Below are positions 15,625 to 37,506 of a DNA stretch of 64,000 nucleotides, one piece after another (the stretch's first letter is position 1; every line of letters begins with the position of its first letter). The position numbers and the translations under genes were made by a program. This DNA is from an uncultured Verrucomicrobiae bacterium. Lineage in GTDB: Bacteria; Verrucomicrobiota; Verrucomicrobiia; Limisphaerales; JAFGQR01. Location of the stretch: NCBI GenBank assembly GCA_963788655.1, contig CAWBHS010000039.1, positions 64,001 through 128,000 on the forward strand, read 5' to 3'. A model generated the notes under the pieces. It searched no databases. It saw only the letters and a program-made list of their open reading frames with translations, and had not been told where the DNA came from.

Positions 15625-17220
15625 GTGACGAAAAGCAAGAAATGGTGGTTGCTGGCTGTCTGTTTCTTCGGGGCAGTGGTGTTCGGAGTAGCCGGGTGGC
15701 GGCTGGTACGCTGGCGGTGGCAGGCCAGCTATGCCGGGAAGCCGGTCAGTTATTGGTTCGCGGAATATTACCAAAAGAGCGAGGCTGACCCACGAAGGCG
15801 TCAGCGCATGGCAGTGGCTTTGTATGTCTTGGAGAAACTGGGGACCAATGCGGTGCCGTATTTGGTAAAGGAGGCGTTAAGCCCCCGCGAGGACTCATCC
15901 ATGCGGAAAGGGTATTACGATTTTCTGACAGTCTTCCCCGACTCCTGGCACGTGCCGCAATTTGTGTCGCGATCAGCAATTCGCAGTCGGGCGGCCATGG
16001 TGATCGACTCCATCCATCCTCCGGCAGACATCCTGTTGCCCCGTCTCCTCGAACCGTTGAGCCGGACGAATACGGTGGACCGCCAAAGGGCTATTTCCAT
16101 TTTGAGTTCCGTGCGTGAAGGCCGGGAAACACTCGTGCCGTATTTTGTGAATGCTTTGCACGATCCGGATCCACACACGCAGATCGAAGCGGTTGAGTTC
16201 CTCGACAAACTCGGATCCCAGGCCTCGGTCGCAGTTCCGGACCTGATGGCGGTGGTCAAGAACACGAATCCCACCAACATCCTTTGTCTGGAAGCAGCAT
16301 ACGTGCTGGGCAACATTGGCAGCAACAGTGTCCCAGCGATTCCGTTGTTGAATACGGTGTATGAGCAACAGACCGATTGGTTAGTGCGCTGTTCGTTGGC
16401 GGCTGTCCTGTGTCGAATCGATCTGCAGCAAACGAATGCGCTACGTTTCCTGATTGATAACCTCGATGAACCACAATCGCCTGGCAAAGTCAGGTGGGTG
16501 GTGAGGCAGTTGCAGTGGATTGGACCGAACGCAACGCCAGCGATCCCTGCCGTACTCAAAATTGCAAAAACCGTTGACTGGGAGGCTTGGACAACTGCGG
16601 TGGATGCGTTGAAAGAGATCGGCGCCTCCGCCGAACTCTATTTGCCAGTGCTGCACGAGAAGTTGGCATCGGACAACGAGAAGTCGCGATACATTGCCGC
16701 CGCGCGAATCCTGGATCTTACCCCATCCGACACGAACGCCCGAGCAGTCATGATTGATCTAATCAAGAGGCGCTCTGAATATGAATCGTGGGCGATCAGC
16801 GATCTGGGTGACACGGGCACGAATGCCCGGGTTGCCGTCGCGATTATTATGGACACCTTAAACGGCACCAATGTCGCCTGCTGGACTGCCGTTCCCAAGG
16901 CGTTGAAAAAGATCGGCGTTTCTCCAGGATCGTATTTGCCCAAGGTGAAGGAAAAGTTGAAATCCAGCAGCGATTGGGCGCGATTAAGGATGGCCGAAGA
17001 AATCCTCGCGATTCAACCGACGGATCGTGAAGCGTTGATGACGTTGATCGCCCTCCTGAAAAGCAACTCGAAGTACGAGTTGCTCGCATTGAAGGCTCTG
17101 GCCGAGAACGGACCGGCCGCCCAAGTGGCCATTCCCGCCATCCGGGAATTGTTGAAAAGTGACGACTTGATTAGTCGCGACATGGCAAGCGACGCCCTGA
17201 AGAAGATCAGTCAAAGGTGA
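15625..17220 (+). CDS. HEAT-repeat membrane-anchored protein
   Basis: N-terminal TM, Y.GKP.S.W motif, repeated LG.IG..A..A.P.L. Confidence 0.8.
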   Translation: MTKSKKWWLLAVCFFGAVVFGVAGWRLVRWRWQASYAGKPVSYWFAEYYQKSEADPRRRQRMAVALYVLEKLGTNAVPYLVKEALSPREDSSMRKGYYDFLTVFPDSWHVPQFVSRSAIRSRAAMVIDSIHPPADILLPRLLEPLSRTNTVDRQRAISILSSVREGRETLVPYFVNALHDPDPHTQIEAVEFLDKLGSQASVAVPDLMAVVKNTNPTNILCLEAAYVLGNIGSNSVPAIPLLNTVYEQQTDWLVRCSLAAVLCRIDLQQTNALRFLIDNLDEPQSPGKVRWVVRQLQWIGPNATPAIPAVLKIAKTVDWEAWTTAVDALKEIGASAELYLPVLHEKLASDNEKSRYIAAARILDLTPSDTNARAVMIDLIKRRSEYESWAISDLGDTGTNARVAVAIIMDTLNGTNVACWTAVPKALKKIGVSPGSYLPKVKEKLKSSSDWARLRMAEEILAIQPTDREALMTLIALLKSNSKYELLALKALAENGPAAQVAIPAIRELLKSDDLISRDMASDALKKISQR

Positions 17221-20466: not shown

Positions 20467-23400
20467 CTACGGTTTGCGCAGGCGGTAGAACCGGTTGCCG
20501 GTCGGCGCGGGGATCGAAATGAAAATGCTGCTGGCGTTGGTCTGGTAACTCGCGGTGCTCACTTCGGACCAGTCGCCAAGCGTAACGGATTGGTCGAGGA
20601 CGAAATCGTCCGCCGCTCTGGTCCAGGAGACGACCACGCTTCCGCCCGAATTCGTTACCAAGAGGCGCGGAGTCACGGGCTCGACACTGAACAGATAGAC
20701 CGCGCCGGCATTCGTCCCGTCCGTGTCGTTCAGTGGCGCGCCAACAATTATCCGGTCACTCCCCAGCGCGGCCATTGACGAACCGAACGAATAATCACGC
20801 GGGGTTGGATTCGCGATGGTGGCCAGCAATGTGCCGGCAGTGTTGATAAGATAGGCCACTCCTGAATAGGGCGCGGTGGTGCTATCCCTCGCCGCAATCA
20901 GTATTCGATCGCTCCCCACCGCCGCTAACGCGCGGCCAAAGCGTTCGTAGTACCCGGGGTGGGATCCGCGAAAGTCGTCAGGAACGTGCCGTTGGTATCG
21001 AACAGATACGCCGCCCCGGAATTACCAGTGGAAGCTGAATACCACGGCGCACCGACAAGAACTCGATCGTTCCCCGCCACTACCACTGAGTGGCCGAATG
21101 CTTCGTCATATCCACCGCTGGGATTGGTGAAGGTCTTCAGCAACGTGCCGTCGGTATCGTAGAGGTAGGCCGCGCCGAGTAGGTCACCCGTCCATGGGGC
21201 GCCAATAAGCACTCGGCCGCTACCAAGCGCCGCCACCGACATTCCCATGCCGGTTTCGCCCACGCCGTTGGTGAAAGTCTTCAACAACGTGCCGTCGGTG
21301 CCGAACAGAAATGCTGCCCCGTAATTTCCTCCAAACCACGGCGCGCCAATCACCACGCGGTCGTTCCCGACCCCTGCTACTGCCTGGCCGAAATGGTCAT
21401 CGAAGCCCGGTGCGGGATTGGTGAAGGCGGTGAGCAACGTGCCATTGGTCCTGAATAGGTACGCCGCGCCTGACCAAGGGTCCCAATCGCCGCCTAGGCT
21501 GTAATTTGGCGCGCCGATAATCACTCGATCATTCCCCACCGCCGCGACGGCCCGGCCGAAGTCGGCAGAGACTTGGGAACTGGGATTGGTGAAGGTGGTC
21601 AGCAAAGTGCCGGCAGTGCTGAACAAATACGCCGCCCCGCCGACCTGGTTGTCGCCGTAGCTCTGATAACCCGGCGCGCCGATGAGCAAGCGGTCACTTC
21701 CCAACGCCGCCACGGACGAGCCAAAGTATTGGGGGTATTCCGGGGTTGGATTGGTAAAGGTGGTCACCAAGGCGGTTTGGACGAAACCGGTGAACGGGGC
21801 GATCGCGGTGAGGGTGATGTCAAACGGATTCTGGTCCGCATCGCTGCTGGCGATATGGAGCGCCGCCTCGCGAACGCCAGGCGCGGCGGGAACGAAGTTG
21901 GCGGTGAACGTCGCGCTGCCACCCGGCGGCAACACCATGGCGGGACTGGCGGTGACACCAAACTCGGCAGCATTCGCCCCGTCAATGGTGAAGCTCAGGA
22001 CCGCGAAATCCTCAAGACTGGAGTTTCTGACCGTGAAAGTGCGTTGGGACCTGCTCCCGAACACTACCCTGCCAAAGTCCACACTGCTCACGCCGTCCAC
22101 AAGACCGACGCCGGCGGGTTGTTCGACCGCGACCTCAGGCGCCGGACACCGGACGCTGTCGAGATTGTCAATGGTCGCCCTGGCGACGTAGGCCGAAACC
22201 TTGCCTCCCGCCGTCGTGAACCGGCCCCCCGCATACAGGTTGCCGCCCGACACTGCCAGCACATCGACAGCCTCGTTGATCCCCGAACCGAGGGGCGACC
22301 AACAAGTCCCGTTCCATTTGGCAATGTGGTTGGCGGGGTAGCCCCCCGCCGTCGTGAAGAAGCCCCCCGCATACAGGTCGCTCCCCGATGCCGCCAACGC
22401 CAACACCACGGAGTTCATTCCCGAACCGAGTGCGCTCCAACTGCTGCCGTTCCATTTGGCGATGTACCTGCCGAGCTACCGCCCGCCATGGTGAAGGAGC
22501 CCCCCGCATACAAGTTGCTGCCCGACACCGCCAACGCCCACACGTCGTTATTCATTCCCGAACCGAGCGCGCTCCAACTGCTGCCGTTCCATTTGGCGAT
22601 TTTATTGGCCGCGATGCCGCCCGCCGTCGTGAATGTGCCCCCCGCATACAGGTCATTGCCCGAGACCGCGAGCGCATACACAGAAGCGAAACTGGGTCCC
22701 ATTCCCGAACCGAGGGCGCTCCAACTGCTCCCGTTCCATCGGGCAATGTGGTTGGCCGGAATGCCGCCCGCCATACTAAAGTAGCCCGCCGCGTACAGGT
22801 TGTTGCCCGCAACCGCCACCGTATAGACATAGGTGTTTATTCCCGAACCGAGTGCATTCCAACTGCTCCCGTCCCACTGGGCGATTCGACTGGCCGCGCG
22901 CCCTCCGGCCGTCGTGAACATCCCACCTGCGTAGAGGTTGCTGCCGAGCACAGCCAGCTCCCGCACCGAGTTGTTCATTCCCGAACCGAGCACGTTCCAA
23001 CTGCTCCCGTTCGATTTGGCGACGCTGTTGGCCACGCTACCGCCCGATGTTGTGAAGTCTCCTCCGGCATACACGTCGCTGCCCGATACTGCCAGCGCTG
23101 ACACATTGCCGTTGATCCCCGACGGGGAAGAACCCAGCGCGCTCCAACTGCTCTCATCCCATTTGGCGATGGAATTGGCCGCGGTCCCGCCCGCCATGGT
23201 GAAGTCGCCCCCCGCATACAGGTCGCTGCCCGACACTGCCAGCGCAAAGACGTCGTAATCGTTCATCCCCGTACCGAGGGGGCTCCAACTGCTCCCGTTC
23301 CATTTAGCAATGTGATTGGCCGTGCTGCCACCCGCCGTCCTGAAGTCGCCCGCTGCATACAGGTCGCTGCCCGACACCGTCAGCGCGGACACAGAAGGAT

Positions 23401-24303
23401 CGTAACTGCCGCCAACCCCCGAACCCAACGCCGACCAACTGCTCCCGTCCCACTTAGCGATGGAATTAGCCACGCTCCCGCCTGCCGTCGTGAAGTAGCC
23501 CCCTGCATACAGGTCGTGGCCGGACACGGCAAGCGCGGTCACCGACCCTCCGTAGTAGTCTTCGCCGTCCGGAGCGCCAATCCCTGAGCCTACCGCGCTC
23601 CAACCGGACCCATCCCACCGGGCGATGTTGGTGGCCGGATTCCCGTCCGCCATCGTGAACGAGCCCCCCGCATACAGATCGCTGCCCGATACGGCCAGCG
23701 CGTACACATAGCCATCTGTTATTCCCAAGCCCAGCGCACTCCAACTGGTCCCGTTCCATTTGGCGATGTTGGTGGCCGGGCTCCCGCCCGCCGTCGTGAA
23801 CCCGCCCGCCGCATACAGGTCGCCGCCCGACACCGCCAGCTCATACAAATAGCCGTCTATCCCCGAACCGAGCGGGCTCCAATTGCTCCCGTCCCATTTC
23901 GCAATGTGATTGGCCGTGATCCCGCCCGCATTCGTGAAATAGCCCGCCGCATACAGATTGCTGCCTGACACCGCCAGCGCCGCCACGATCTGGTTCATCC
24001 CCGAGCCGAGGGCCGACCAATTCTCCCATCCCATTTGGCGATGTGATTGGCAACGACACCGCCCACAACTGTAAATTGCCCCCCGATGTAGAGATGGCCT
24101 GAACCATCCACCACCGCCGCATGCACAGGGCCGTCCGCACCGGGAATGCTGGGATTCATGCTGATCCAATTGTCGTCGCTGAAGGTCGCAGCGGAGAGGG
24201 TGGCGGTGGACGCGCCGATCAGCAGCGCGGCGAGCCCGGCCGCGCGCGCCGCCGCGGCTGACCGCAACAGGCTCGGGATGGAATTGAGGGAGTTTGCTTT
24301 CAT
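20467..24303 (-). CDS. Large secreted beta-propeller repeat protein with Ig-like (ASH/choice-of-anchor D-like) domain and FG-GAP repeats (frameshifts near 24025, 22470, 20925)
   Basis: Signal peptide MKANSL...; about 13 repeats ALAVSG.DLYAGG.FT.AGG..A..IAKW.GS.WS.LGSG; FG...IGAP repeats; ends RFYRLRKP. Confidence 0.8.
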
Positions 24304-24331
24304 AGTTCTAGCGAGGCGAAGGTTCAGACCG

Positions 24332-24432
24332 GAAACCACGAATGAACACGAATGAACACGAATGAACACGAATGAACACGAATTCGGACCAGGCCTTCCG
24401 CTCATTGATTCGTGTCGATTCGTGTGCATTCG
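24332..24432. repeat. 10-nt tandem repeat (CACGAATGAA) x ~4.5 plus inverted copies
   Basis: AATGAACACG x4 at 24341-24380; GATTCGTGTC GATTCGTGTG CATTCG at 24407-24432. Confidence 0.9.
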
Positions 24433-26410
24433 GAAAGCGCCAAGCAAGCTTGGTGGTTCTTGTTAACTGCAACGTGTTAACCATGATAAATGGTCGAGAG
24501 TCATGTAGCCGACCCTTAAGCGGGTGGGAGCGATCCTGCCCGTTGAAGCTGGGGAAGGCCAATGCGCGAGCCGTAGCGTTCCGCGAACTCGGTTCGGCCT
24601 CGTTACACAAAACTGGGAGTGGCCAGCCTGCCGGATGTGGTGAAGCCCGCATCGGTCGGGAAGATTCGATCCCATGCACCGACCGGACTCCCCGGGGTGA
24701 GAGGAGACAGCGCGCGCAGAAAGAACCACTGGGAACTTGGGAGGCCCGGTTCGGAGTCCTGGCCTGTAACGCAGGACAACCCCTGGCGGGAAGCCATAAC
24801 CGCTGGTGGGGCCGAATCGCGGCGTCGGATGGGCTCATAGTAGCGTCGATCTGCCGATCAAGTTGGCAGGGAGCCAAGGAGCCCTGGCCAGAGTCAAGCC
24901 GAGTCAGAGGAATCCGGAGCTGATTGGGATGGAGTTCATTCCTACAACAGAAGAAGCGGTGGAGGAACTTTCCTTCCGGGAAGCGATCCTGCCGCCGAGC
25001 CTGCGGGAACTGAGACAGAAGCTGGGCCAGAAAGCCAAACAACAGAAGCGGTTTCGCTTCTACAGTCTCTACGCTTTGGTGTATCGAACCGACGTGCTGC
25101 AAGCGGCTTGGGCCGCGGTGCGGCGCAACGACGGTGCGCCGGGCGTGGACGGAGTGAGCATCGAACAGATCACCACGACGCCGGAAAGCGAAGCGGCATT
25201 TCTGTCCGAGATCGAACGGAGCCTGAGGGACAAAACCTATCGTGCCCAAGCGGTGCGGCGGGTGTATATCTCGAAGGCCAACGGCAAGTTGCGGCCGTTG
25301 GGCATTCCGACGGTGCGGGACCGGGTGGTGCAAGCGGCGGTGTTGCTGATCCTGGAGCCGATCTTCGAAGCCGACTTTGAAGACTGCTCCCACGGGTTTC
25401 GGCCCGGACGATCGGCGCACGATGCCTTGCGCGCCATCCAACAGCACCTGAAGGAGGGTCAAACGGCGGTGTATGATGCGGATCTGGCTGGCTACTTCGA
25501 CAGCATTCCCCACGATAAGCTGATCGCTTGCGTGCGGATGCGCGTGGTGGACGGTTCGGTCCTGGGACTGATCCGACAATGGCTCAAGGCGCCGGTGGTG
25601 GAACCGCCCCCAGGGGGACAACCACCCACGGTGCGACGCAACGACCGGGGCACCCCCCAAGGTGGAGTGCTTTCGCCGTTGCTGGCCAATGTCTATTTGC
25701 ACTGGTTCGACCACCTCTTCCAACGAGGAGATGGACCGGCGCAATGGGCCAAAGCGAAGCTGATCCGTTACGCGGACGACTTCGTGGTCATGGCTCGCTA
25801 CATCAGTCCGAAGTTGCGGGAATGGATCGAGGGCAAACTGGAAGGCTGGCTGGACCTGCAAATCAACCGGGATAAAACTCGGATCGTGGATTTGAAGCAA
25901 TCGGGCCAGAGCCTGGATTTCCTGGGCTACACCTTTCGGTATGACCGCGATCAATACGGTCGGCCGCAGCGTTACTGGAACCTGGAACCGTCGCGCAAAA
26001 CGATGGAGCGGGAACGGAAAGCGTTGCGAGGGTTGATCAACCCGCATCAGAGTCATACGCCCATGCCGGAGTTGATTGGACGGGTGAACCGTCACCTGCG
26101 GGGTTGGTCCAACTACTTCAAGTTGGGCTATCCGCGGAAGGCATTTCGTCAGCTCAATCACTTCGTGCGGTATCGGTTGGGACGGCATCTGCAACGTCGC
26201 AGCCAACGGGGTTGGCGAGCCCGTGAGGGCGTCAGCCTGTATGCTCACTTGGACCATCTGGGACTGGTTGCGTTGTGAATGCTTTGTGGAAGAGCCGACA
26301 CTGGCGAGAGCCGGATGGGGGAAATCTCCATGTCCGGTTCGACGAGGGAGAGGGAAGCGGCGGTCATTGGTTTTCGGGCCTTTCATTCCGTGCTTTCCTC
26401 TCTACTCTAC
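24433..26410 (+). mobile_element. Group II intron, no endonuclease domain, probably bacterial class E/F-like
   Basis: RT/maturase ORF; domain V GAGCCGGATG...GAAA...GTCCGGTTC (~26308-26340) with AGC triad; domain VI with bulged A at 26404; ends CTCTAC. 5' boundary inferred from restored flanking repeat. Confidence 0.88.
24929..26278 (+). CDS. ltrA: Group II intron reverse transcriptase/maturase
   Basis: [60 protein letters not shown]. Confidence 0.95.
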
Positions 26411-26472
26411 TGGTTCAAAAACTTGATCTGGCTACTACGTGATTTGCACTGCGGGCGTTGGTGAATTTCCGT

Positions 26473-28095
26473 TCAAGGCACTGGCACGCCCACACGGTAT
26501 AAGCGGGGTATCGGGCCGACGGCGTTAGTGTCGTTAAAGGTGGTCGTGCCGGGTTGGCCGGGAAGGTTGGTCGCCAGGGGAAAGAACAGCGGCGTGGCGG
26601 ATAGGTTGGTGTTGCACTCCACCACATAACTCCGGTTGGTCACGCTCGTCCAGGTGAGGGTGACGTGGGTGGGCGTGATCACCGGCGAAGCAAGCCACAG
26701 CTCGGACAGGGCGTTGGTGGGATCAGTCCCAGCCATCCACTCCTGCCAATTGTTGTGACCGTCCTGGTCCGTGTCCGCGGCATCCGCCGAGCCGTCGGTG
26801 GGCAGGCCGGATTGCTGGAGCCAGGCGTAGGAAATCGTGCTGGCGGGCGACTGGAATTCGTAGGCGCCGATGTCCACCGTGCCGCCGGCGATGCGCGGAA
26901 GGCCGTCCAGGTCCGTGGCGGCGGTGACGTAGGCATTGTTGCCGGCGTTGATGCAGGGAGAGTTGGATTGAAGCCGCAGATTGCTCCAACCGTTCGTGTC
27001 CACGAACAGCGGCGCATTGGTGATGTTCCCGACTCCGCTCGTAGGGGCGGGTGTGGTGGAGCAGTAATTAAGATCGCAGTCGTAGTCGTAGTTGGCACCG
27101 CTCCAGTTGTCGTTGTTGTGATAGAGGATGGAGTTGTTGATTCTGCTATAGTACGCTCCGCCGATACTGTCGGCTGAATTGCCGATTACCGTACAGTTAT
27201 TGAGCAGAGAATTGTCTGCGCCGCCTCCGAACCCGGTAGCCGAATTCCCAATGATCAAGCAGTTATTTAACGCACAGACGGTAGCTCCACCGCCGTGCCA
27301 AATGGCTGTATTGCCCTTCAACGTGCAGTTGTTAAGAGTGCCGCCGGCAGCGCCGCCGCCGCCGCTGGATGTTCCCAGAGCCGAGTTGCCCACGAGCGTG
27401 CAGTGGTTCAGCGTGCCATCGCGGGTCGCGCCGCCCTGCCAACCAGCTGAATTGCCGGTGAAGGTGCAGTTGTTCAGTGTAGCATCGCGGGCTCCCCCGC
27501 CATACCAACCTGCTGAATTCCCCATGAAGGTGCAGTTGTTGAGCGAGCCACTGAAAATCCCGCCAGCGTCGGAAGCGGCTGAGTTGCCTTTGAACACGCA
27601 GTTGGACACCACAACATCCAGCCCCTCGCACCATGCCCCGCCCCCGGAATGATTAGGGTTCCACCAGTCGTTGGACGAACCCTTGGTAGCTCCATTCGTC
27701 AGCGTGAAGCCCGCCAGCACCGCGCCGTTGGTCAGATACGCGCATCGGATCGCGTTGTCACCGATGGGTCCGGAGCCCACGATGCTTGTGTACGCCGGTC
27801 CGTCGACGCTCCGCACTGTCACCGGCTTGGTCACGGCCACGCGGTTGCTCATGCCATACACCGCGCGCGCTCCGGTCTGATAGACACCGTTCGTCACCAC
27901 GATTTCGTCGCCATCCACGGCGGCATCCACGGCGTCCTGAATGGTCACAGCGGCGGTGGCCCAGGAACTGTAGGGGGCGAGGGCGTTGGTGTTGGCGGCG
28001 TCCACATAGAGGGTGGCGGCACGTGTGCCGACAAAAGCGGATAACAAGGGCAACAGGCAAATGATCGTCGCGATTTTGGAGAAACGGGCTTTCAT
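26473..28095 (-). CDS. Secreted parallel beta-helix protein with choice-of-anchor Q-like segment
   Basis: Signal MKARFSK...RA; 22-aa repeats GGG...L.NCT..GNSA; LQSNSPCINAG...VDIGAYE; D.DG.NNWQEW.AGTDP; ends RLYRVGVP. Confidence 0.85.
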   Translation of the reverse strand: MKARFSKIATIICLLPLLSAFVGTRAATLYVDAANTNALAPYSSWATAAVTIQDAVDAAVDGDEIVVTNGVYQTGARAVYGMSNRVAVTKPVTVRSVDGPAYTSIVGSGPIGDNAIRCAYLTNGAVLAGFTLTNGATKGSSNDWWNPNHSGGGAWCEGLDVVVSNCVFKGNSAASDAGGIFSGSLNNCTFMGNSAGWYGGGARDATLNNCTFTGNSAGWQGGATRDGTLNHCTLVGNSALGTSSGGGGAAGGTLNNCTLKGNTAIWHGGGATVCALNNCLIIGNSATGFGGGADNSLLNNCTVIGNSADSIGGAYYSRINNSILYHNNDNWSGANYDYDCDLNYCSTTPAPTSGVGNITNAPLFVDTNGWSNLRLQSNSPCINAGNNAYVTAATDLDGLPRIAGGTVDIGAYEFQSPASTISYAWLQQSGLPTDGSADAADTDQDGHNNWQEWMAGTDPTNALSELWLASPVITPTHVTLTWTSVTNRSYVVECNTNLSATPLFFPLATNLPGQPGTTTFNDTNAVGPIPRLYRVGVPVP

Positions 28096-28147
28096 AGAGT
28101 CTTGGGCTTTCTCTTCAGGGTTTGGACAAGCGATAAAAGTCATCTTC

Positions 28148-31100
28148 TCAATGCTTTTGCAGCACGCGAAAGAATCGCGCGGGAAGGGTCCTGCCGGCAG
28201 GATCGGTGATTTGCAGCAGGCCATTCGTGAGCGCAATGGAATTGGTTAGCCGGGTCCAATGCTCCAGGGCGAGAGCAAGGTTGGTTGAAGCATAAATCTC
28301 GCACAAAGCCAGATTGGCCTCCGTTACGGGCATGCCATCGGCGCGGCCCAGGCGCATCTGACAAGTTCCATCCGCCGCTACTTGTGAGCTGTACAACTTC
28401 AAGGCGTCGCCAGGGACTTCATAGGCTCCCATGTCCGCGGTTCCGCCCATCACGCGCGGGTTGCCATCGAGATCAGTTAGGCCGGGCGCATAAAGATTCA
28501 AGCCCGCGTTGATGCAAGGGGAGCTGGATTGCAGGCGGAAGTTGCCACCGAGGCGATTTAGGAACAGCGGCTCGGCGGTGATGTTGCCGAGGCCATGGGT
28601 CGGTGCTGGCCAGGCGCAACAATGGTTCAAAGTGAGACCCGTATAGTTAGGTTGTTCCTGTGCCGTGTTGTAATAAATAATGCAGTTGTAAAGTGTGCCG
28701 CCAAGAATCCCGCCGCCCCAATTGGCCGAGTTAGCCGTCAAGGTGCAGTTGCTGAGGACGCCAAAATACGACCCCCCGCCCGCATCCGCTGAATTGCCGG
28801 TCAAAAGGCAGTTTCTGAGCGATGCAGAACAGGAGCCGCCACCGTTCGTAGCCGAGTTGCCGATTAGGGTGCAGTTCCAGAGCGTGCCATAATAGGAGCC
28901 GCCGCCGTTCGTAGCGGAGTTGGCGCTCAACGTGCAGTTGCTGAGCACGCCGGAATAGGAGCCGCCGCCCAAATCCGCCGAATTGCCGGTCAAGCTGCAT
29001 TTGTAAAGCTCGCAATGGTACGTGCCCCCACCAGAATCTGCCGCGTTGCCATTGATGATGCAGTAATTGAGCGTGTTAGAACACGCGCCGCCGCCGAAGG
29101 TCGCCCCATTGTTGGTCAAAATGCACTTAGTGAGCAGGCCCGAATACGCGCCACCGCCGAGGACAGCCCCGTTGTTGGTCAAGGTGCAATTGTAGAGTTT
29201 GCCGGAATGGGAGCCGCCGCCATTCGTCGCCGAGTTGCCCGTAAAGAGGCAGTTGCTGAGTGTGCCGGAAAAGGAGCCGCCGCCGAAAGTGGCCCGATTG
29301 CTGATGAAGGTGCAGTTGTTGAGTTCGCCATGCCACGAACCACCGCCCTGTTCAGCCGAGTTCCCGATAAACGTGCAGTTATTCAGCGTGCCATAAATGG
29401 AGCCGCCGCCGCCGTAAGCAGCCGAGTTGTTGATAAAGGTGCAGTTCGTTACCATGGCCGTCGAAGAGCACCAGACGCCTCCACCGTAGTATGTAGTCGC
29501 TCCGTTGGTCAAAGTGAACCCGCTCAGAACCGCTCTGTCGGCCAAATAAACACACCGCATGGCCCCATCCCCGTTAGTCGTCCCCGGCGTCTGGTAGCCT
29601 TGGATTACGGTTACTTCCGGCCCATTGACGCTCCGCAGCACCATTTGCCTTTTCACTGATACCCTTTGGTATCTCCCGCCAAGGGCATAGACGCCGTTAG
29701 TGACCAGGACGGTGTCGCCGTCCTGCGCGGCATCAACGGCGTCCTGGATCACATGCGCCGCCGTATCCCAGGTGGCGTAGGGAGGAGCAGGGGCAGGGCT
29801 GTCCTGCCGGACGTACAAGAGGACTGCGTCTAACCGCATGCCCACGCCAAAGGGGTTGCTCTCCCCTGCAATGCCAGCGTCGGTTTCAGCCCGCAAGCTA
29901 ACGTTGGGAGCCAATACCGGAATCATCACCTCGCCCGCCCAGCAGCCATTGGTAAAGGATCCCGAGGCGCTGGGGGTAACCGTTGCGTCGGCGCCCAGCA
30001 GGGAAAAGGAAACCGGACCGGTAAAGTTCGTGATGATGTCATTTACCACATCCTGGGCGGTGATGGTTATTGTAAATGGGACGCCAACCTGTTGAGGGGA
30101 GGCAATGGGGCTGAAACCAAAATGATGGAGTGTGCCCGGTGGAATCACCTGGACCAAAACCGTGGTACAGATACCCCCTGGAAAGCTGTCATTGTATCCG
30201 GTCAAACGCACCGGGTAGAACCCCGGTATGTTCCAACTATGGCTCAGGTATGGGGTATTGCTCACCAGCACCCCGCCGCCAAAATCCCAGACACTGTCCG
30301 TGATTGGCCCCTCGATGTGAGCCAGGAACGAGACGGGGAAACCCGGGCCCACTTTGGTAGAGCCCGCTTCGATAGCCATGCTGAGCAGGCCGGTGACACT
30401 GCCGGCCGAAACCTGATCGGCCCCCATGCAGGGAGGATTCAGCCAGGGCTCGCCGTCAATGTCCACGCCGCGGACATAAGCGGCGCTGCCGCGTCCGATG
30501 CAGGGTGAGCCAAGCGAAAGATGGGATGCGGAGGCGAGTTGGGGCGGGTCGCTGATATTTCCGATGCCATTGGTCGGTGTTGGCAGAGTGCAAGAATAGT
30601 TCAAAGTGGTGTAAACATAGTTGGATCCTTGCGGTGCATTGTTGTAATAGACAATGCAATTGTTGAGCGTGCCAGAATACGAGCCGCCGCCGTAGGAAGC
30701 CGAATTGCCGGTCAAGGTGCAGTTGTTCAGCGTGTCATTACACGAACCGCCTCCGTAGGAAGCCGAGTTGCCGGTTAAGATGCAGTTGTTGAGCTTGCCG
30801 GAACACGAGCCGCCGCCGCCAGACGAAGCCGAATTGCCGCTCAAGGTGCAGTTGTTGAGCGTGCTATATAAGGCGCCGCCACCGGACTCAGCCGAGTTGC
30901 CGGTCAAAGTGCAGTTGTTGAGCGTGCCACCATACGAGCCGCCACCGCCATGAAAGGCGGAGTTACCCACCAGCACACAGTTGCTTAGCACGGCACCCGA
31001 TTCGCACCATACTCCCCCGGCGCGCTTCTCCTTGATATAATCCCCGCTGGTCCGGGTGTGACCATTCTTCAGGGTAAACCCGCTCAATATTGTGTTAGAC

Positions 31101-35254: not shown

Positions 35255-36127
35255 GTGCTTAGTATTGGCGTTAAGGAATTGTTGGAAGCCGGCGTCCATT
35301 TTGGACATCAAACGAAACGATGGAATCCGAAGATGAAGCCATTCATCTTCGATGCGCGCAACGGCATCCACATCATCGACCTCAGCAAAACCCTCCAGCA
35401 ATTGGAGCGCGCCTGCTCCTTCATGGCGGAGACCATCCGCAAAGGCGACCAGGTGCTTTTCGTGGGCACCAAGAAGCAGGCGCAACAAGCCATCCGCGAT
35501 GCGGCCACCTCGTGCGGCCAGTTTCACGTGACGGAACGCTGGCTGGGCGGCACGCTCACCAACTACAAAACCATCCGGCGCTCCGTGGCCCGGCTGCGGG
35601 AAATCGAAAAAATGGAGGCCGACGGCTCCATCAGCAATTACGTCAAACAGGAGCAATCCCGCTATCGCCGCGAAGCCGCCCGGATGACCAAATATTTCGA
35701 AGGCATTCGCGACATGGAAAAGCATCCGGCGGCCATGTTCGTGGTGGATATCAAGCGGGAGCAAAATGCCGTGGCCGAAGCGCGCCGTTTAAAGATTCCG
35801 ATCGTCGCGGTCGTGGACACCAACTGCGATCCGGAACTGGTGGACTATCCCATCGCGGGCAATGACGATGCGATTCGTTCGGTGCGCATGATTCTCAGCG
35901 TCATCGTGCAATCCATCAGCACGGCGCGTGGGGAGTTCCAGGCCAAGGTGAGCCAGCCGGTGCCGCAAGTCGTCCCTTCCGGTGACGTGACGCCACTGCC
36001 GGAACCGATCGCCACCCCGCCACCGACCGAACCCGCGCCGCCCCCCGTCCTGCCTCCTGAAGAGCAGGTGCAACTGCCCGCGGAAATGTCACCGGAACCG
36101 GCGCCGCCTTCCGGGCCGGGCGCCTAG
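35255..36127 (+). CDS. rpsB: 30S ribosomal protein S2
   Basis: LLEAGVHFGHQTKRWNPKM, RWLGGTLTN, DTNCDP, GNDDAIRS. Confidence 0.97.
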   Translation: MLSIGVKELLEAGVHFGHQTKRWNPKMKPFIFDARNGIHIIDLSKTLQQLERACSFMAETIRKGDQVLFVGTKKQAQQAIRDAATSCGQFHVTERWLGGTLTNYKTIRRSVARLREIEKMEADGSISNYVKQEQSRYRREAARMTKYFEGIRDMEKHPAAMFVVDIKREQNAVAEARRLKIPIVAVVDTNCDPELVDYPIAGNDDAIRSVRMILSVIVQSISTARGEFQAKVSQPVPQVVPSGDVTPLPEPIATPPPTEPAPPPVLPPEEQVQLPAEMSPEPAPPSGPGA

Positions 36128-36222
36128 TCGGAATTGCTCCGGCGCCACGGTTCGGGCCGTATAACCGGGGAAGGCCGGCTCCCAAAGAATTTGTTCAACC
36201 TCTAACTGTTAATTGAAACGCT

Positions 36223-37062
36223 ATGCCTGAAATCACTGCCGCGGATGTCGGCAAACTCCGCTTAATGACGAATGCCGGTTTAATGGACTGCAAGAAAGCC
36301 CTGACGGAAGCGCAGGGCGACCTGGACCTGGCTGTGGAAAACCTGCGCAAGAGCGGCGTGGCCACCGCCGCCAAGAAATCGTTACGGGAAGCCAAGGACG
36401 GTGTCATTGTGCAAGCCATCGCTCCCGGCGCCCGGGCCGGGCTGCTGGTGGAAGTCAATTGTGAAACCGACTTCGTGGCGCGCAACGAGAGTTTTCGCGC
36501 GTTCTGCGACGACATCGCCAAGAAGTTGCTGGAGAATCCCCAGGTTGATGTGGAGACGGACCGCGTCGCCGCCGTCGCGAAGATCGGCGAGAACATCATG
36601 ATTTCCCGCCATACGCGATTGGAAGTCAGCGGCAACGGCATGATCGCCGCCTATATCCACACGGGCGCCAAAGTTGGCGTGCTGGTGGAAGTCGGTGCCG
36701 GCAAGGAAGCCTCGGTGGCGAATGATGACTTTAAACAAGCGGTCAAGGACGTCACCCTGCAAATCGCCGCGGCCAATCCAACCGTCGTGAGCCGGGAGCA
36801 AATCGATTCAGCGATTCTCGACAAAGAAAAGGAAATCGCCGCGGCCCAGTTCAAGGACAAGCCGCCGCAAGCTCTCGAAAAAATCGTCGAAGGCAAATTG
36901 GAGAAGTTCTTCCAGTCGTCCTGCCTGTTGGATCAGGGGTTTGTGAAACAGAATTCCGAGATCTCCGTCAAAGAGCACTTGGCGGCCATTGGCAAGAAAC
37001 TTGACGACCAGATCGAAGTGCGCCGTTTTGCCCGCTTCCAAGTGGGCGAAACCACGACCTGA
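36223..37062 (+). CDS. tsf: Elongation factor Ts
   Basis: DCKKAL, EVNCETDFVA, YIH, RRFARF. Confidence 0.97.
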   Translation: MPEITAADVGKLRLMTNAGLMDCKKALTEAQGDLDLAVENLRKSGVATAAKKSLREAKDGVIVQAIAPGARAGLLVEVNCETDFVARNESFRAFCDDIAKKLLENPQVDVETDRVAAVAKIGENIMISRHTRLEVSGNGMIAAYIHTGAKVGVLVEVGAGKEASVANDDFKQAVKDVTLQIAAANPTVVSREQIDSAILDKEKEIAAAQFKDKPPQALEKIVEGKLEKFFQSSCLLDQGFVKQNSEISVKEHLAAIGKKLDDQIEVRRFARFQVGETTT

Positions 37063-37092
37063 CACTGGGCGCAAGTTGGTGAATATAAAAGA

Positions 37093-37117
37093 ACCGTTCC
37101 GCATCGCACGGAACGGT
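37093..37117. terminator. Likely bidirectional intrinsic terminator
   Basis: ACCGTTCCG-loop-CGGAACGGT with A-rich and T-rich flanks between convergent genes. Confidence 0.7.
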
Positions 37118-37149
37118 GTTTGTAGGCCTGTCAGCAGGGTTGCTGCTGG

Positions 37150-37506
37150 CTAGGCTTCAAAGGATTTGCCGCAGCCGCAGCTTTGGCTGGCGTTGGGGTT
37201 GGTGATCTTGAAACCGCCACCGGTCAGGCTGTCCACGTAGTCAATGAGGGTTCCCATCAGGTAATTGGCACTGAACGGGTCCACGACCACGGTGACGTCG
37301 TAAAATTCGTGCTGCCAGTCGTCGGTGCGGATTTCGTCGAAGACCATCCCGTATTGCATGCCGGAACAGCCGCCCGCTTCCACGTAAATGCGTAGTGCTT
37401 TGTCGGCGTCTTCTGGTTGTTTGGCCCGCAGGTTCTTCACGTGGTTGGCCGCGCTTTCGGTCAAGGTCACCGCAGTTGGCGTTTGGGTTGTCGGGCTGCT
37501 TTCCAT
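37150..37506 (-). CDS. A-type Fe-S cluster carrier (HesB/IscA/ErpA family)
   Basis: GGCSG, NPNA..SCGCGKSF. Confidence 0.92.
   Translation of the reverse strand: MESSPTTQTPTAVTLTESAANHVKNLRAKQPEDADKALRIYVEAGGCSGMQYGMVFDEIRTDDWQHEFYDVTVVVDPFSANYLMGTLIDYVDSLTGGGFKITNPNASQSCGCGKSFEA

Follow-up and report, generated by a model that had tools for sequence, protein, structure and literature searches.

The locus described here raises the question of why a group II intron resides in a palindrome of short, regularly spaced repeats, and by which features its RNA would find such a place. The intron is contained in a stretch of 64,000 nucleotides (the window) from an uncultured Verrucomicrobiae bacterium, which covers positions 64,001 to 128,000 of contig CAWBHS010000039.1 (C39 in our numbering) in assembly GCA_963788655.1, a metagenome-assembled genome (MAG) of 8.96 Mb in 115 contigs with 86% completeness and 5.6% contamination (G000 among the genomes compared). 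It encompasses 1978 nt on the plus strand (24433-26410). Our analysis identifies it as a real and recently mobile group II intron whose ends are those proposed in an earlier note on the same DNA, and it makes it very probable that we are dealing with a retromobile element without endonuclease, which starts with the sequence GAAAGCG and whose lineage tracks phased-array palindromes of its hosts by the pairing of exon-binding sites (EBS) in the intron with intron-binding sites (IBS) in the exons.

The limits of the intron are set by Rfam matches, by five near-identical copies in the genome and by sites where it is absent. As the earlier note had claimed, the removal of 24433-26410 joins CATTCG (24427-24432) to TGGTTC (26411-26416), coordinates that we find correct to the base, and the joined flanks read CATTCGTGGTT, the exact complement of AACCACGAATG (24334-24344). 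The latter opens the left arm of the palindrome (24334-24386, plus strand) and continues into four copies and a partial unit of CACGAATGAA, a run that spans 24337-24386. The right arm, which includes the 5' exon (24405-24432, plus strand), consists of the three degenerate units TTGATTCGTG, TCGATTCGTG and TGCATTCG; the entire arm, TTGATTCGTGTCGATTCGTGTGCATTCG, shows 86% complementarity with the left array across 28 nt and constitutes a degenerate inverted copy of it. The palindrome is closed by the 3' exon TGGTT (26411-26415, plus strand), which pairs with AACCA at 24334-24338 and whose first base, T26411, represents IBS3. When reconstructed in silico, the empty site of the window folds into one long hairpin of -30.9 kcal/mol (DNA parameters), compared to -14.2 +/- 2.5 kcal/mol for 100 mononucleotide shuffles of the same site (z = -6.7).

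Further copies of the intron and empty repeat sites, which had been suggested as a check, are both found in the genome. Each of the five copies is exactly 1978 nt long. With the window copy as reference, 0, 1, 1, 1 and 3 differences were counted, and the flanks of the copies have nothing in common past the intron ends except for a short target motif. In the window copy (L001) the 5' exon cGTGTGCATTCG precedes the 3' exon TGGTTC, and the same 3' exon follows aGTGTCAATTCG in L002 and aaGTGCGATCCG in L003, whereas the remaining copies combine ctGTGCTCTCTG with TGGTTA (L004) and ccGTGCAATCCG with TGGCGA (L005). Two paralogous sites are empty: one, at C59:~69294-69325, contains the uninterrupted right arm ending in GATTCGTGTCGATTCGTGTGCATTCGTGGTTC, and the other, on C97, is homologous to the 5' flank of the copy on C107 up to GCGATCCG TGGTT and then diverges. 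These two uninterrupted sites fix the junction independently of any motif, and the junction cannot slide, since the last exon base is G where the last intron base is C, and the first intron base is G where the 3' exon starts with T. Contigs assembled from three soil-metagenome DNA runs break at 24431-24440 and at 26412-26414, as is expected of a repeat with these ends. The near-identity of the five copies in unrelated flanks, with all reading frames open, thus points to recent mobility.

Some additional observations concern the same copies and their sequencing data. The homology between C97 and C107 belongs to a 2.8-kb duplication of 98% identity (C97:12742-15555 and C107:3361-6167), which includes an open reading frame (ORF) resembling an N6-methylase and which stops precisely with the TGGTT that belongs to the intron target, C107 being occupied and C97 empty. 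We considered this repeat as a transposon with array ends, and rejected the idea because the opposite end of the homology is located within a coding region and carries no inverted array. No allele with an empty site, that is, no contig across the intron, was found in the assembled contigs of the sequencing runs, a result that is uninformative on absence. In one RNA run (X16), a single contig of a related organism with a depth of about 4 joins window position 26412 back to 24427, in the order intron 3' end, TG, T, GCATTCG and intron 5' end, so that two intron ends flank a single 10-nt array unit; this could reflect a tandem insertion in adjacent units or a circle formed from an upstream alternative 5' site, of the type reported for Ge.ur.I1-1. 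Among the five copies of a relative in another genome (G023), two (L010 and L042) are devoid of the first ~45 nt and are preceded by ~1 kb of identical upstream sequence, which indicates one 5'-truncated copy carried in a larger duplication.

The RNA contains the domains typical of group II introns. The core of domain I (24471-24707, plus strand) matches the Rfam model RF02005 (group-II-D1D4-6) with 59.8 bits at a threshold of 49 (E = 1e-15) and is of IIB type; four relatives match the same model. Domains V and VI are covered by RF00029 (26306-26410; 47.2 bits against a threshold of 40). The catalytic hairpin of domain V is present as 33 nt on the plus strand (26308-26340; -20.6 kcal/mol, z = -3.8) and is, on reading by hand, compatible with a 4-bp upper helix closed by a GAAAU loop, while its minimum free energy (MFE) fold contains a bulged G and a 4-nt loop AAAU. 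Domain VI (26344-26410, plus strand; fold z = -4.3) offers a branch-type bulged A26404, from which the six nucleotides CUCUAC lead to the 3' splice site, and the intron terminates in AC, as the AY rule demands. Between these domains, a plus-strand ORF (24929-26278) encodes a protein of 449 amino acids with reverse transcriptase (RT) and maturase regions (Pfam RVT_1, 1.5e-32; GIIM, 1.7e-13). These were the only families returned by the Pfam search, which found no endonuclease domain, and the frame is open and free of stop codons in all five copies. A tblastn search against plasmids retrieved only genes annotated 'ltrA' at ~41-44% identity, with no information on class.

A pronounced peculiarity of the intron concerns its first nucleotides (24433-24439, plus strand), which read GAAAGCG and are directly followed by the hairpin CCAAGC-AA-GCUUGG in all five copies. 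To place this feature we tallied 5' ends over part of the 79 loci that came from the search for relatives. GAAAGCG occurs at 22 loci from 11 assemblies plus G000 (12 in all), with several assemblies holding multiple copies in different flanks, GTGCG occurs at 11 loci of 8 assemblies, which belong to more distant relatives with the same hairpin after the motif, and GAGCG is found at a single locus (L060) in one assembly. The alignment register keeps G1 and the GCG, with U2 replaced by AAA; for the alternative register GAAAG plus CG, inspection of the alignment by eye revealed no consistent column that could serve as epsilon-epsilon' partner. In a quick, preliminary tree the GAAAGCG rows are set apart from those with GTGCG (supports of 83-96), and L060 is sister to a canonical intron, although the root of the tree and the place of three loci with short or possibly wrong-frame ORFs (L114, L075 and L112, on a branch of 2.66) are unreliable. 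The GAAAGCG clade thus starts differently from the near-universal GUGYG and is proliferating nevertheless. The intron at L060 (JAAYAT010000245.1), with a protein of 62% identity, is located at the end of an ATCCGCG-type array, and its GAGCG apparently represents an independent change at position 2 of the motif. A limited open-access text search, on which we base no claim of absence, retrieved neither a description of a start of the GAAAGCG type nor one of introns that home into phased arrays.

How the intron would recognize its target is illustrated by the covariation between introns and their exons. An alignment of 28 introns, confined to their first 300 nt and including relatives collected from other genomes, was used for EBS1 and EBS2, and the relation between EBS3 and the first 3'-exon base (+1) was scored in an alignment of 17. 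The assignment of EBS1 to CGGAUG (24632-24637, plus strand) in the earlier note is borne out by its covariation with the flanking exons. Its placement in a terminal loop was equally correct, the loop comprising 10 nt in a stem-loop aligned by the Rfam model, whereas the supporting stem had been misread: instead of GCCA with TGGT it is formed by GGC/GCC and GCC/GGU (24621-24623 with 24645-24647 and 24626-24628 with 24639-24641), as supported by the Rfam consensus and the MFE fold. On its own, this small hairpin is no more stable than shuffled sequences (z = +0.74). The partner IBS1 is CATTCG (24427-24432, plus strand), preceded by GTGT (24422-24425) as IBS2, both defined by covariation across the relatives. 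EBS1 pairs with the 5' exons of all five copies, perfectly with AUCCG, with one G-U pair in AUUCG and with one mismatch in UCUCUG. In the alignment with the relatives, EBS1 and IBS1 change together, with the pairs CGGAT/ATCCG, CAGAT/ATCTG, CAGAGA/TCTCTG or TCTTTG, CTAAA/TTTAG, CGAA/TTCG, CAGGAT/ATCCTG, CTGATT/AATCAG and CAAAGA/TCTTTG. EBS2, ACACA (24605-24609, plus strand), lies in an internal loop on the 5' side of the EBS1 stem-loop, ~25 nt upstream of EBS1, and its partner comprises the exon bases ~8-11 nt before the junction; for EBS2 and IBS2 the pairs in the alignment are ACAC/GTGT, ACGCA/TGCGT, CGCG/CGCG, CTC/GAG and ACGCT/AGCGT. As candidate for EBS3 we propose A24700 (plus strand), whose partner would be the first 3'-exon base, the respective column showing A with T and G with C in 17 of 17 introns, in related rows that hold few changes. 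Column 24607, in the middle of EBS2, covaries with +1 in 17 of 17 introns as well, which we ascribe to the periodic nature of the target.

The nature of the sites that the relatives occupy can be read from their exons. The 5' exons are again phased arrays, of types such as (CATCCGCGC)n, (ATCTGCGTNN)n, ATCCGTGNNNTCGGTGTAATCCG and TTATCTGTGTCAATCAGTGAGAATCTG, with examples that run up to the junction as CATCCGCGCCATCCGCGCCATCCG, ATCTGCGTTTATCTGCGTCGATCTG, ATCCGTGTCCTCGGTGTAATCCG and TTATCTGTGTCAATCAGTGAGAATCTG, and the 9-10-nt sequence varies from genome to genome. The 3' exons start with YGGTY in 14 of 17 cases. Since the array unit consists of an IBS1-like heptamer plus YG, the unit that precedes the insertion point supplies IBS2, and the intron thus fits a periodic target. 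Two side observations point to the same architecture with other unit sequences: the flanks of L004 (C60:16958-21951 around the copy at C60:18463) contain arrays of (TTTCAGCA)n and of CCGCAAAGAT-type units, and in a relative from genome G227 (L011, 5' flank) the intron is surrounded by a palindrome of GAACGCANNG and CTGCGTTCNN.

The arrays themselves are far more widespread than the intron. In a census of 301 sampled Verrucomicrobiota genomes, a pattern of three such units plus a terminal G was found in 144, with a maximum of 169 matches in one genome and 16 in G000, and the reversed control pattern gave no match in any row listed of the census. Many of the matches are arranged as inverted pairs, with a few tens of bases between them. 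Introns whose encoded protein shows an identity of at least 54% were found in 5 of the 301 genomes, G000 aside. From this discrepancy we conclude that the arrays are host repeats which were not made by the intron. A larger relative of the window palindrome was detected in G000, where a palindromic element of ~190 nt (C103:~17017-17215, with relatives on C59, C48, C74, C8, C81, C63 and C50) combines array arms of the ATTCGTG type with an asymmetric conserved centre, GTCACC-N4-GGTGACC, and has outer ends near CTTAGCCGT and CTTAGCCGTATC. Its ~8-9 copies are 70-90% alike, and in two cases the element is located ~110 nt upstream of a gene start. The palindrome in the window is a shorter form that is devoid of the conserved centre. 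An Rfam search with six copies of the element returned no bacterial family and only a sub-threshold match to a microRNA family. Two methods proved unsuitable for counting: Tandem Repeats Finder, applied to the whole genome, broke the arrays up into numerous singletons with different consensus units, which made it unusable as census, and a regular-expression scan for array ends gave 56 matches and was too loose and noisy.

Two functional identities of the arrays were considered and rejected. A role as intrinsic terminators is at odds with the absence of a T-run and with the position of 7 of the 19 scored loci between divergent ORFs; after the hairpin in the window, the plus strand reads CAAAAA and the minus strand TTTCCGG. 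Out of 20 array loci found, one was too near a contig end, and the remaining 19 were classified, by crude longest-ORF calls, as 7 divergent, 9 tandem and 3 convergent. The second candidate was a system of repetitive extragenic palindromes (REP) mobilized by REP-associated tyrosine transposases (RAYT). G000 encodes a RAYT-like HUH/Y1 transposase of 334 amino acids (P0001, C60:344837-345838, plus strand; Pfam Y1_Tnp), whose best NCBIfam match, NF047646 'REP-associated tyrosine transposase', reaches 59 bits and remains below the cutoff of 80, and copies or fragments are located at C62:172251-173228, C49:85402-86166, C113:33527-34045 and C50:3896-4866. At two of the five copies (C60 and C113) the gene is found 49 nt from arrays; an intron copy is located 49 nt downstream of the transposase gene, and an array palindrome is found equally far from a second copy of this gene. 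However, the array ends, AACCRCG and CGYGGTT, carry no GTAG or CGTC tag, and the link to the gene is not general: none of 11 loci in other genomes has an array within 1.5 kb of the transposase gene. Homologues of the transposase were detected in 63 of the 301 genomes, some with dozens of candidates, and by hand tally arrays are present in 46 of these 63 and, where no homologue was detected, in 98 of 238 genomes. The motif GATAAAGTGACAGGTTCAAAGTTATTGAC was noticed just upstream of four of the transposase copies.

The earlier note had proposed that the intron homes into a multicopy intergenic repeat, which would offer many harmless targets. Our results support this view for the lineage and for the motif, but for this genome they confine it, as only one or two of the five copies reside in true arrays. 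That the target is present in multiple copies is confirmed by CATTCGTGGTT, which occurs 25 times in the genome compared to ~4 times expected from its length (by hand arithmetic), and ~18 of the 25 occurrences, as judged by eye, are preceded by ATTCGTG-type units. When the genome, freed of its introns, was scanned with a strict model of the target (GTG, 1-3 nt, a full match to EBS1, TGGT), 42 sites were obtained, compared to 13 in the reversed-genome control, with ~17 of them at array ends, one of which is occupied. In MFE folds of the empty sites the junction is found in the descending arm of a hairpin in all five cases, 4-5 nt from its base, and three of the five are more stable than shuffled sequences. 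No ORF with a Pfam match is interrupted at any of the five intron sites, and insertion is presumably harmless. It thus appears that the intron reads a short sequence which the arrays supply in bulk, and that the repeat family is not filled.

Several of our observations weigh against the proposed interpretation or restrict its reach. Besides the window copy, only the copy at C60:345890 can, more loosely, be assigned to a 10-nt array, and the other three share a motif of ~16 nt, GTG-N(1-3)-(ATYCG or CTCTG) followed at the junction by TGG and TT or CG, in weaker hairpins. About 16 of the array ends detected by the strict model carry no intron, among them the second arm of the palindrome in the window, whose minus strand offers the perfect target GTGTTCATTCG followed by TGGTT. 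With z-values of -6.7, -4.0, -2.5, -0.4 and +0.8 for the hairpins of the five reconstructed sites, the last two of which fold like shuffled sequences, a requirement for the hairpin is not established. The 5' GUGYG, which defines the family, is absent from all five copies, where GAAAGCG takes its place. No spliced junction was detected in assembled RNA or DNA contigs, although data at the level of contigs are uninformative on absence. A 2-kb repeat in a MAG can lead to mis-joined flanks, so that the pairing of 5' and 3' flanks is of assembly grade. The rows of the covarying alignment are related and the number of independent changes is consequently smaller than the number of rows. Finally, the placement in class F, to which we return below, relies on features of the RNA and on a published description instead of a tree with named references.

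Taken together, we envisage a mechanism in which the intron RNA would carry out the target search by the pairing of EBS2 (ACACA) with GUG(U), of EBS1 (CGGAUG) with (C)AUYCG and of the candidate EBS3 (A24700) with the first 3'-exon base. All three pairings would be offered at once by the unit that closes a phased 9-10-nt array, with its end YGGTY, and because arrays occur as inverted pairs, insertion would take place within a descending hairpin arm, at a distance of 4-5 nt from the base. The arrays are in this scheme old repeats of the host that are found across Verrucomicrobiota independently of the intron, and the intron lineage would follow them between genomes by altering EBS1 and EBS2. For a protein without endonuclease, priming of cDNA synthesis would presumably depend on the replication fork, as in other introns of this kind. 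While the intron ends, the copies, the empty sites, the covariation and the spread of the arrays are observed here, splicing at the junction of CATTCG and TGGTTC, the pathway of mobility and the role of the hairpin are features that we infer. In a bolder version, a retromobile clade would have exchanged GUGYG for GAAAGCG, and its lineage would be an obligate parasite of paired, helically phased heptamer arrays, undescribed and phylum-wide, which it follows by rewriting EBS1, EBS2 and EBS3; about this version we are nearly evenly divided, with a slight inclination against it. If it were true, branching and reverse splicing would not require position 2 of the intron in this scaffold, and the arrays would constitute a natural safe harbour and an unexplained element of the host.

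The most serious competitor of array tracking is plain homing to a sequence of ~16 nt that would be read wherever it occurs, with arrays and hairpin playing no part. We consider it a real possibility, although one from which we lean away. It would readily account for the three copies outside canonical arrays, which still contain GTG-N-(ATYCG or CTCTG) in front of TGG, and for the two reconstructed sites without significant hairpin, and pairing by EBS1, EBS2 and EBS3 is sufficient to explain the specificity. What it would not lead us to expect, if arrays were incidental, is that relatives with other EBS sequences are in many assemblies again found at array ends. Likewise unexpected are the position of the junction in the descending arm in all five MFE folds and the conservation of YGG at +1 to +3 in 14 of 17 introns, where only +1 has a partner. 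A second competitor is a strategy as in group IIC introns, where a DNA hairpin, exposed in single strands, would be the main element recognized and base-pairing would merely adjust the position. An insertion 4-5 nt from the base of a descending arm, as seen for the window and for all five folds, together with a protein that lacks an endonuclease, is compatible with this idea, which we nonetheless regard as unlikely in light of a complete EBS2 and an EBS1 of 5-6 bp that covary with the target, a large domain I of IIB type and two sites with weak hairpins. Group IIC introns, as far as described in the accessible part of the account by Nagy et al. (PMC3753933), have no EBS2 and insert after a hairpin and not inside its arm.

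Two further explanations concern the origin of the arrays and the state of the intron. The arrays might be products of the intron itself, for instance left behind by abortive insertion that recurred or by duplication of the target, since the unit resembles IBS1 plus the start of IBS2 and since units of the ATTCGTG type are found beside related introns in distant phyla (also in the accessible text of PMC3753933). This we find scarcely credible, given that arrays are present in 144 genomes, with up to 169 matches, and close relatives of the intron in 5, and given that copies of the array element are 70-90% alike, which marks the arrays as old, in contrast to the near-identical copies of the intron. 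It is also very improbable, if slightly less so, that the intron is dead or defective in splicing and that its copies were spread by duplication at the level of DNA. The loss of GUGYG and the lack of spliced RNA in contig-level data would agree with such a state, but five copies with base-exact ends, unrelated flanks and intact reading frames would not, and neither would the recurrence of GAAAGCG in 22 loci from 11 other assemblies, several of them with multiple copies in different flanks. Multicopy loci with exact ends are a footprint of retromobility, which needs excised RNA. Array tracking by a retromobile intron thus remains the interpretation that we prefer.

The observations are of interest beyond the locus, as group II introns serve as model for the origin of spliceosomal introns and as basis of targetron gene-targeting tools. 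Related introns that have been retargeted to different units of 9-10 nt, with covariation of EBS1, EBS2 and EBS3, amount to a ready-made specificity series, and a proliferating clade without GUGYG would bear on the contacts of the 5' terminus that are needed for branching and reverse splicing. The arrays, inverted pairs of heptamers phased by one helical turn, are present in close to half of the Verrucomicrobiota genomes sampled, with up to ~170 copies, and can conveniently be marked by the intron.

Both neighbours of the intron in the window are antisense to it. On its left, the outer end of the palindrome is separated by ~30 nt from the ATG (24301-24303) of a gene for a beta-propeller repeat protein (22415-24303, minus strand; Pfam Rax2/DUF5122 on 22415-24169). 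This gene appears to be frameshifted, with overlapping minus-strand ORFs in different frames (22415-24169 and 23995-24447), where the frame from the ATG at 24303 stops at 23995 and the long Rax2/DUF5122 frame (22415-24169) is another one, which reflects either a pseudogene or an indel in the assembly. On its right, an ORF taken from the ORF list (26473-28236, minus strand) ends 62 nt from the intron and shows no match to a family in the Pfam search. The genome harbours a second, divergent group II intron at C43:~36109-37199 (minus strand; loci L006 and L008, ~70% nucleotide identity over part of the RT), which matches RF00029 for domains V and VI but not RF02005 for domain I and thus probably belongs to another class.

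Among characterized introns, several share part of the described features. RmInt1 and RmInt2 of Sinorhizobium meliloti, IIB-type introns of class D without endonuclease, also use EBS1, EBS2 and EBS3 for homing into another multicopy element; they resemble the intron described here in their abundant target and in an insertion that is probably harmless, and they differ in the choice of genes or ends of insertion sequences as targets, in their class and in their canonical 5' end. Group IIC introns have an IBS1 of 3-4 bp and a small domain I and insert just after a hairpin. The intron in the window, in contrast, contains EBS2, an EBS1 of 5-6 bp and a domain I of RF02005 type and is inserted inside a descending arm, and membership in group IIC is ruled out by its covarying EBS2, long EBS1, large domain I and within-arm insertion. 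What the IIC introns, including those that target attC sites, have in common with it are hairpins, repeats, intergenic sites and the lack of an endonuclease, a class contrasted in the consulted portions of PMC3753933 and PMC1702495. A natural intron whose 5' splice site is likewise not located directly at GUGYG is C.te.I1 of Clostridium tetani, where GUGCG is found 8 nt downstream of the splice site (McNeil and Zimmerly, 2014; PMC4024640, as far as its accessible text describes); that intron is ORF-less and immobile, whereas here the motif itself is altered to G-AAA-GCG in a proliferating retroelement.

For the arrays, the closest description that we found concerns paired tandem-repeat sites of Geobacter metallireducens, which were divided into classes 1-3 and interpreted as 'putative global regulator binding sites' (Aklujkar et al., 2009; PMC2700814, from which the following is drawn in excerpt). 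These sites are, as the arrays, intergenic pairs on opposite strands that contain 3-5 tandem units of 7-9 nt and occur in dozens of copies, and insertion sequences occur at a constant spacing from some of them. They differ in phylum and in their units, GTTGCTYN, TCTCCGTS[Y] and MTYCTGA, and the excerpted account mentions no association with introns.

The strongest resemblance is found in group IIF. Relatives with 55-62% identity are encoded in MAGs of Brocadiaceae, Acidobacteriota and Thermodesulfobacteriota, which we take to be, at the level of phylum or family, the taxa of c-Ku.st.I1, So.us.I2 and Ge.ur.I1. This is in line with the group that comprises Ge.ur.I1, So.us.I2, Pe.th.I2 and c-Ku.st.I1 (Toro and Martinez-Abarca, 2013; PMC3552965, in its accessible part). 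According to the portions of Nagy et al. (2013, RNA 19:1266; PMC3753933) available to us, classes IIE and IIF are characterized by a small IIB-like RNA, a protein without endonuclease, a domain V loop of 5 nt in place of 4 nt and a displaced alpha' motif, for class F on top of a DId3 stem-loop, together with one additional bulge loop in DId3. Of these traits, the intron in the window displays the small IIB-like RNA, with EBS1 and EBS2 in a IIB-like domain I, and the protein without endonuclease; it also shares the six nucleotides between branch point and 3' splice site with the IIF intron Pe.th.I2. Judged by its published description, the closest intron found is Ge.ur.I1-1, a group IIF intron from Geobacter uraniireducens Rf4, whose 5' exon contains additional motifs (AUUCG/CGUGU and CAUUCG) at distances of 9 and 19 nt upstream, which serve as alternative 5' splice sites. 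Both introns are IIB-like, encode a protein without endonuclease and use AUUCG/CAUUCG as IBS1 and CGUGU as IBS2 within the same phased motif, but Ge.ur.I1-1 has a canonical GUGYG start and comes from a different phylum, and in the part of the report that we consulted its repeated motifs are treated as splice sites and not as a repeat family or a homing niche. The specialization of a lineage on the ends of phased short-repeat palindromes belongs to a known kind of behaviour, the parasitism of introns on other repeats, and is foreshadowed by Ge.ur.I1-1, whereas the clade-wide GAAAGCG at the 5' end and the breadth of the arrays that serve as targets are the less ordinary features of the intron described here.

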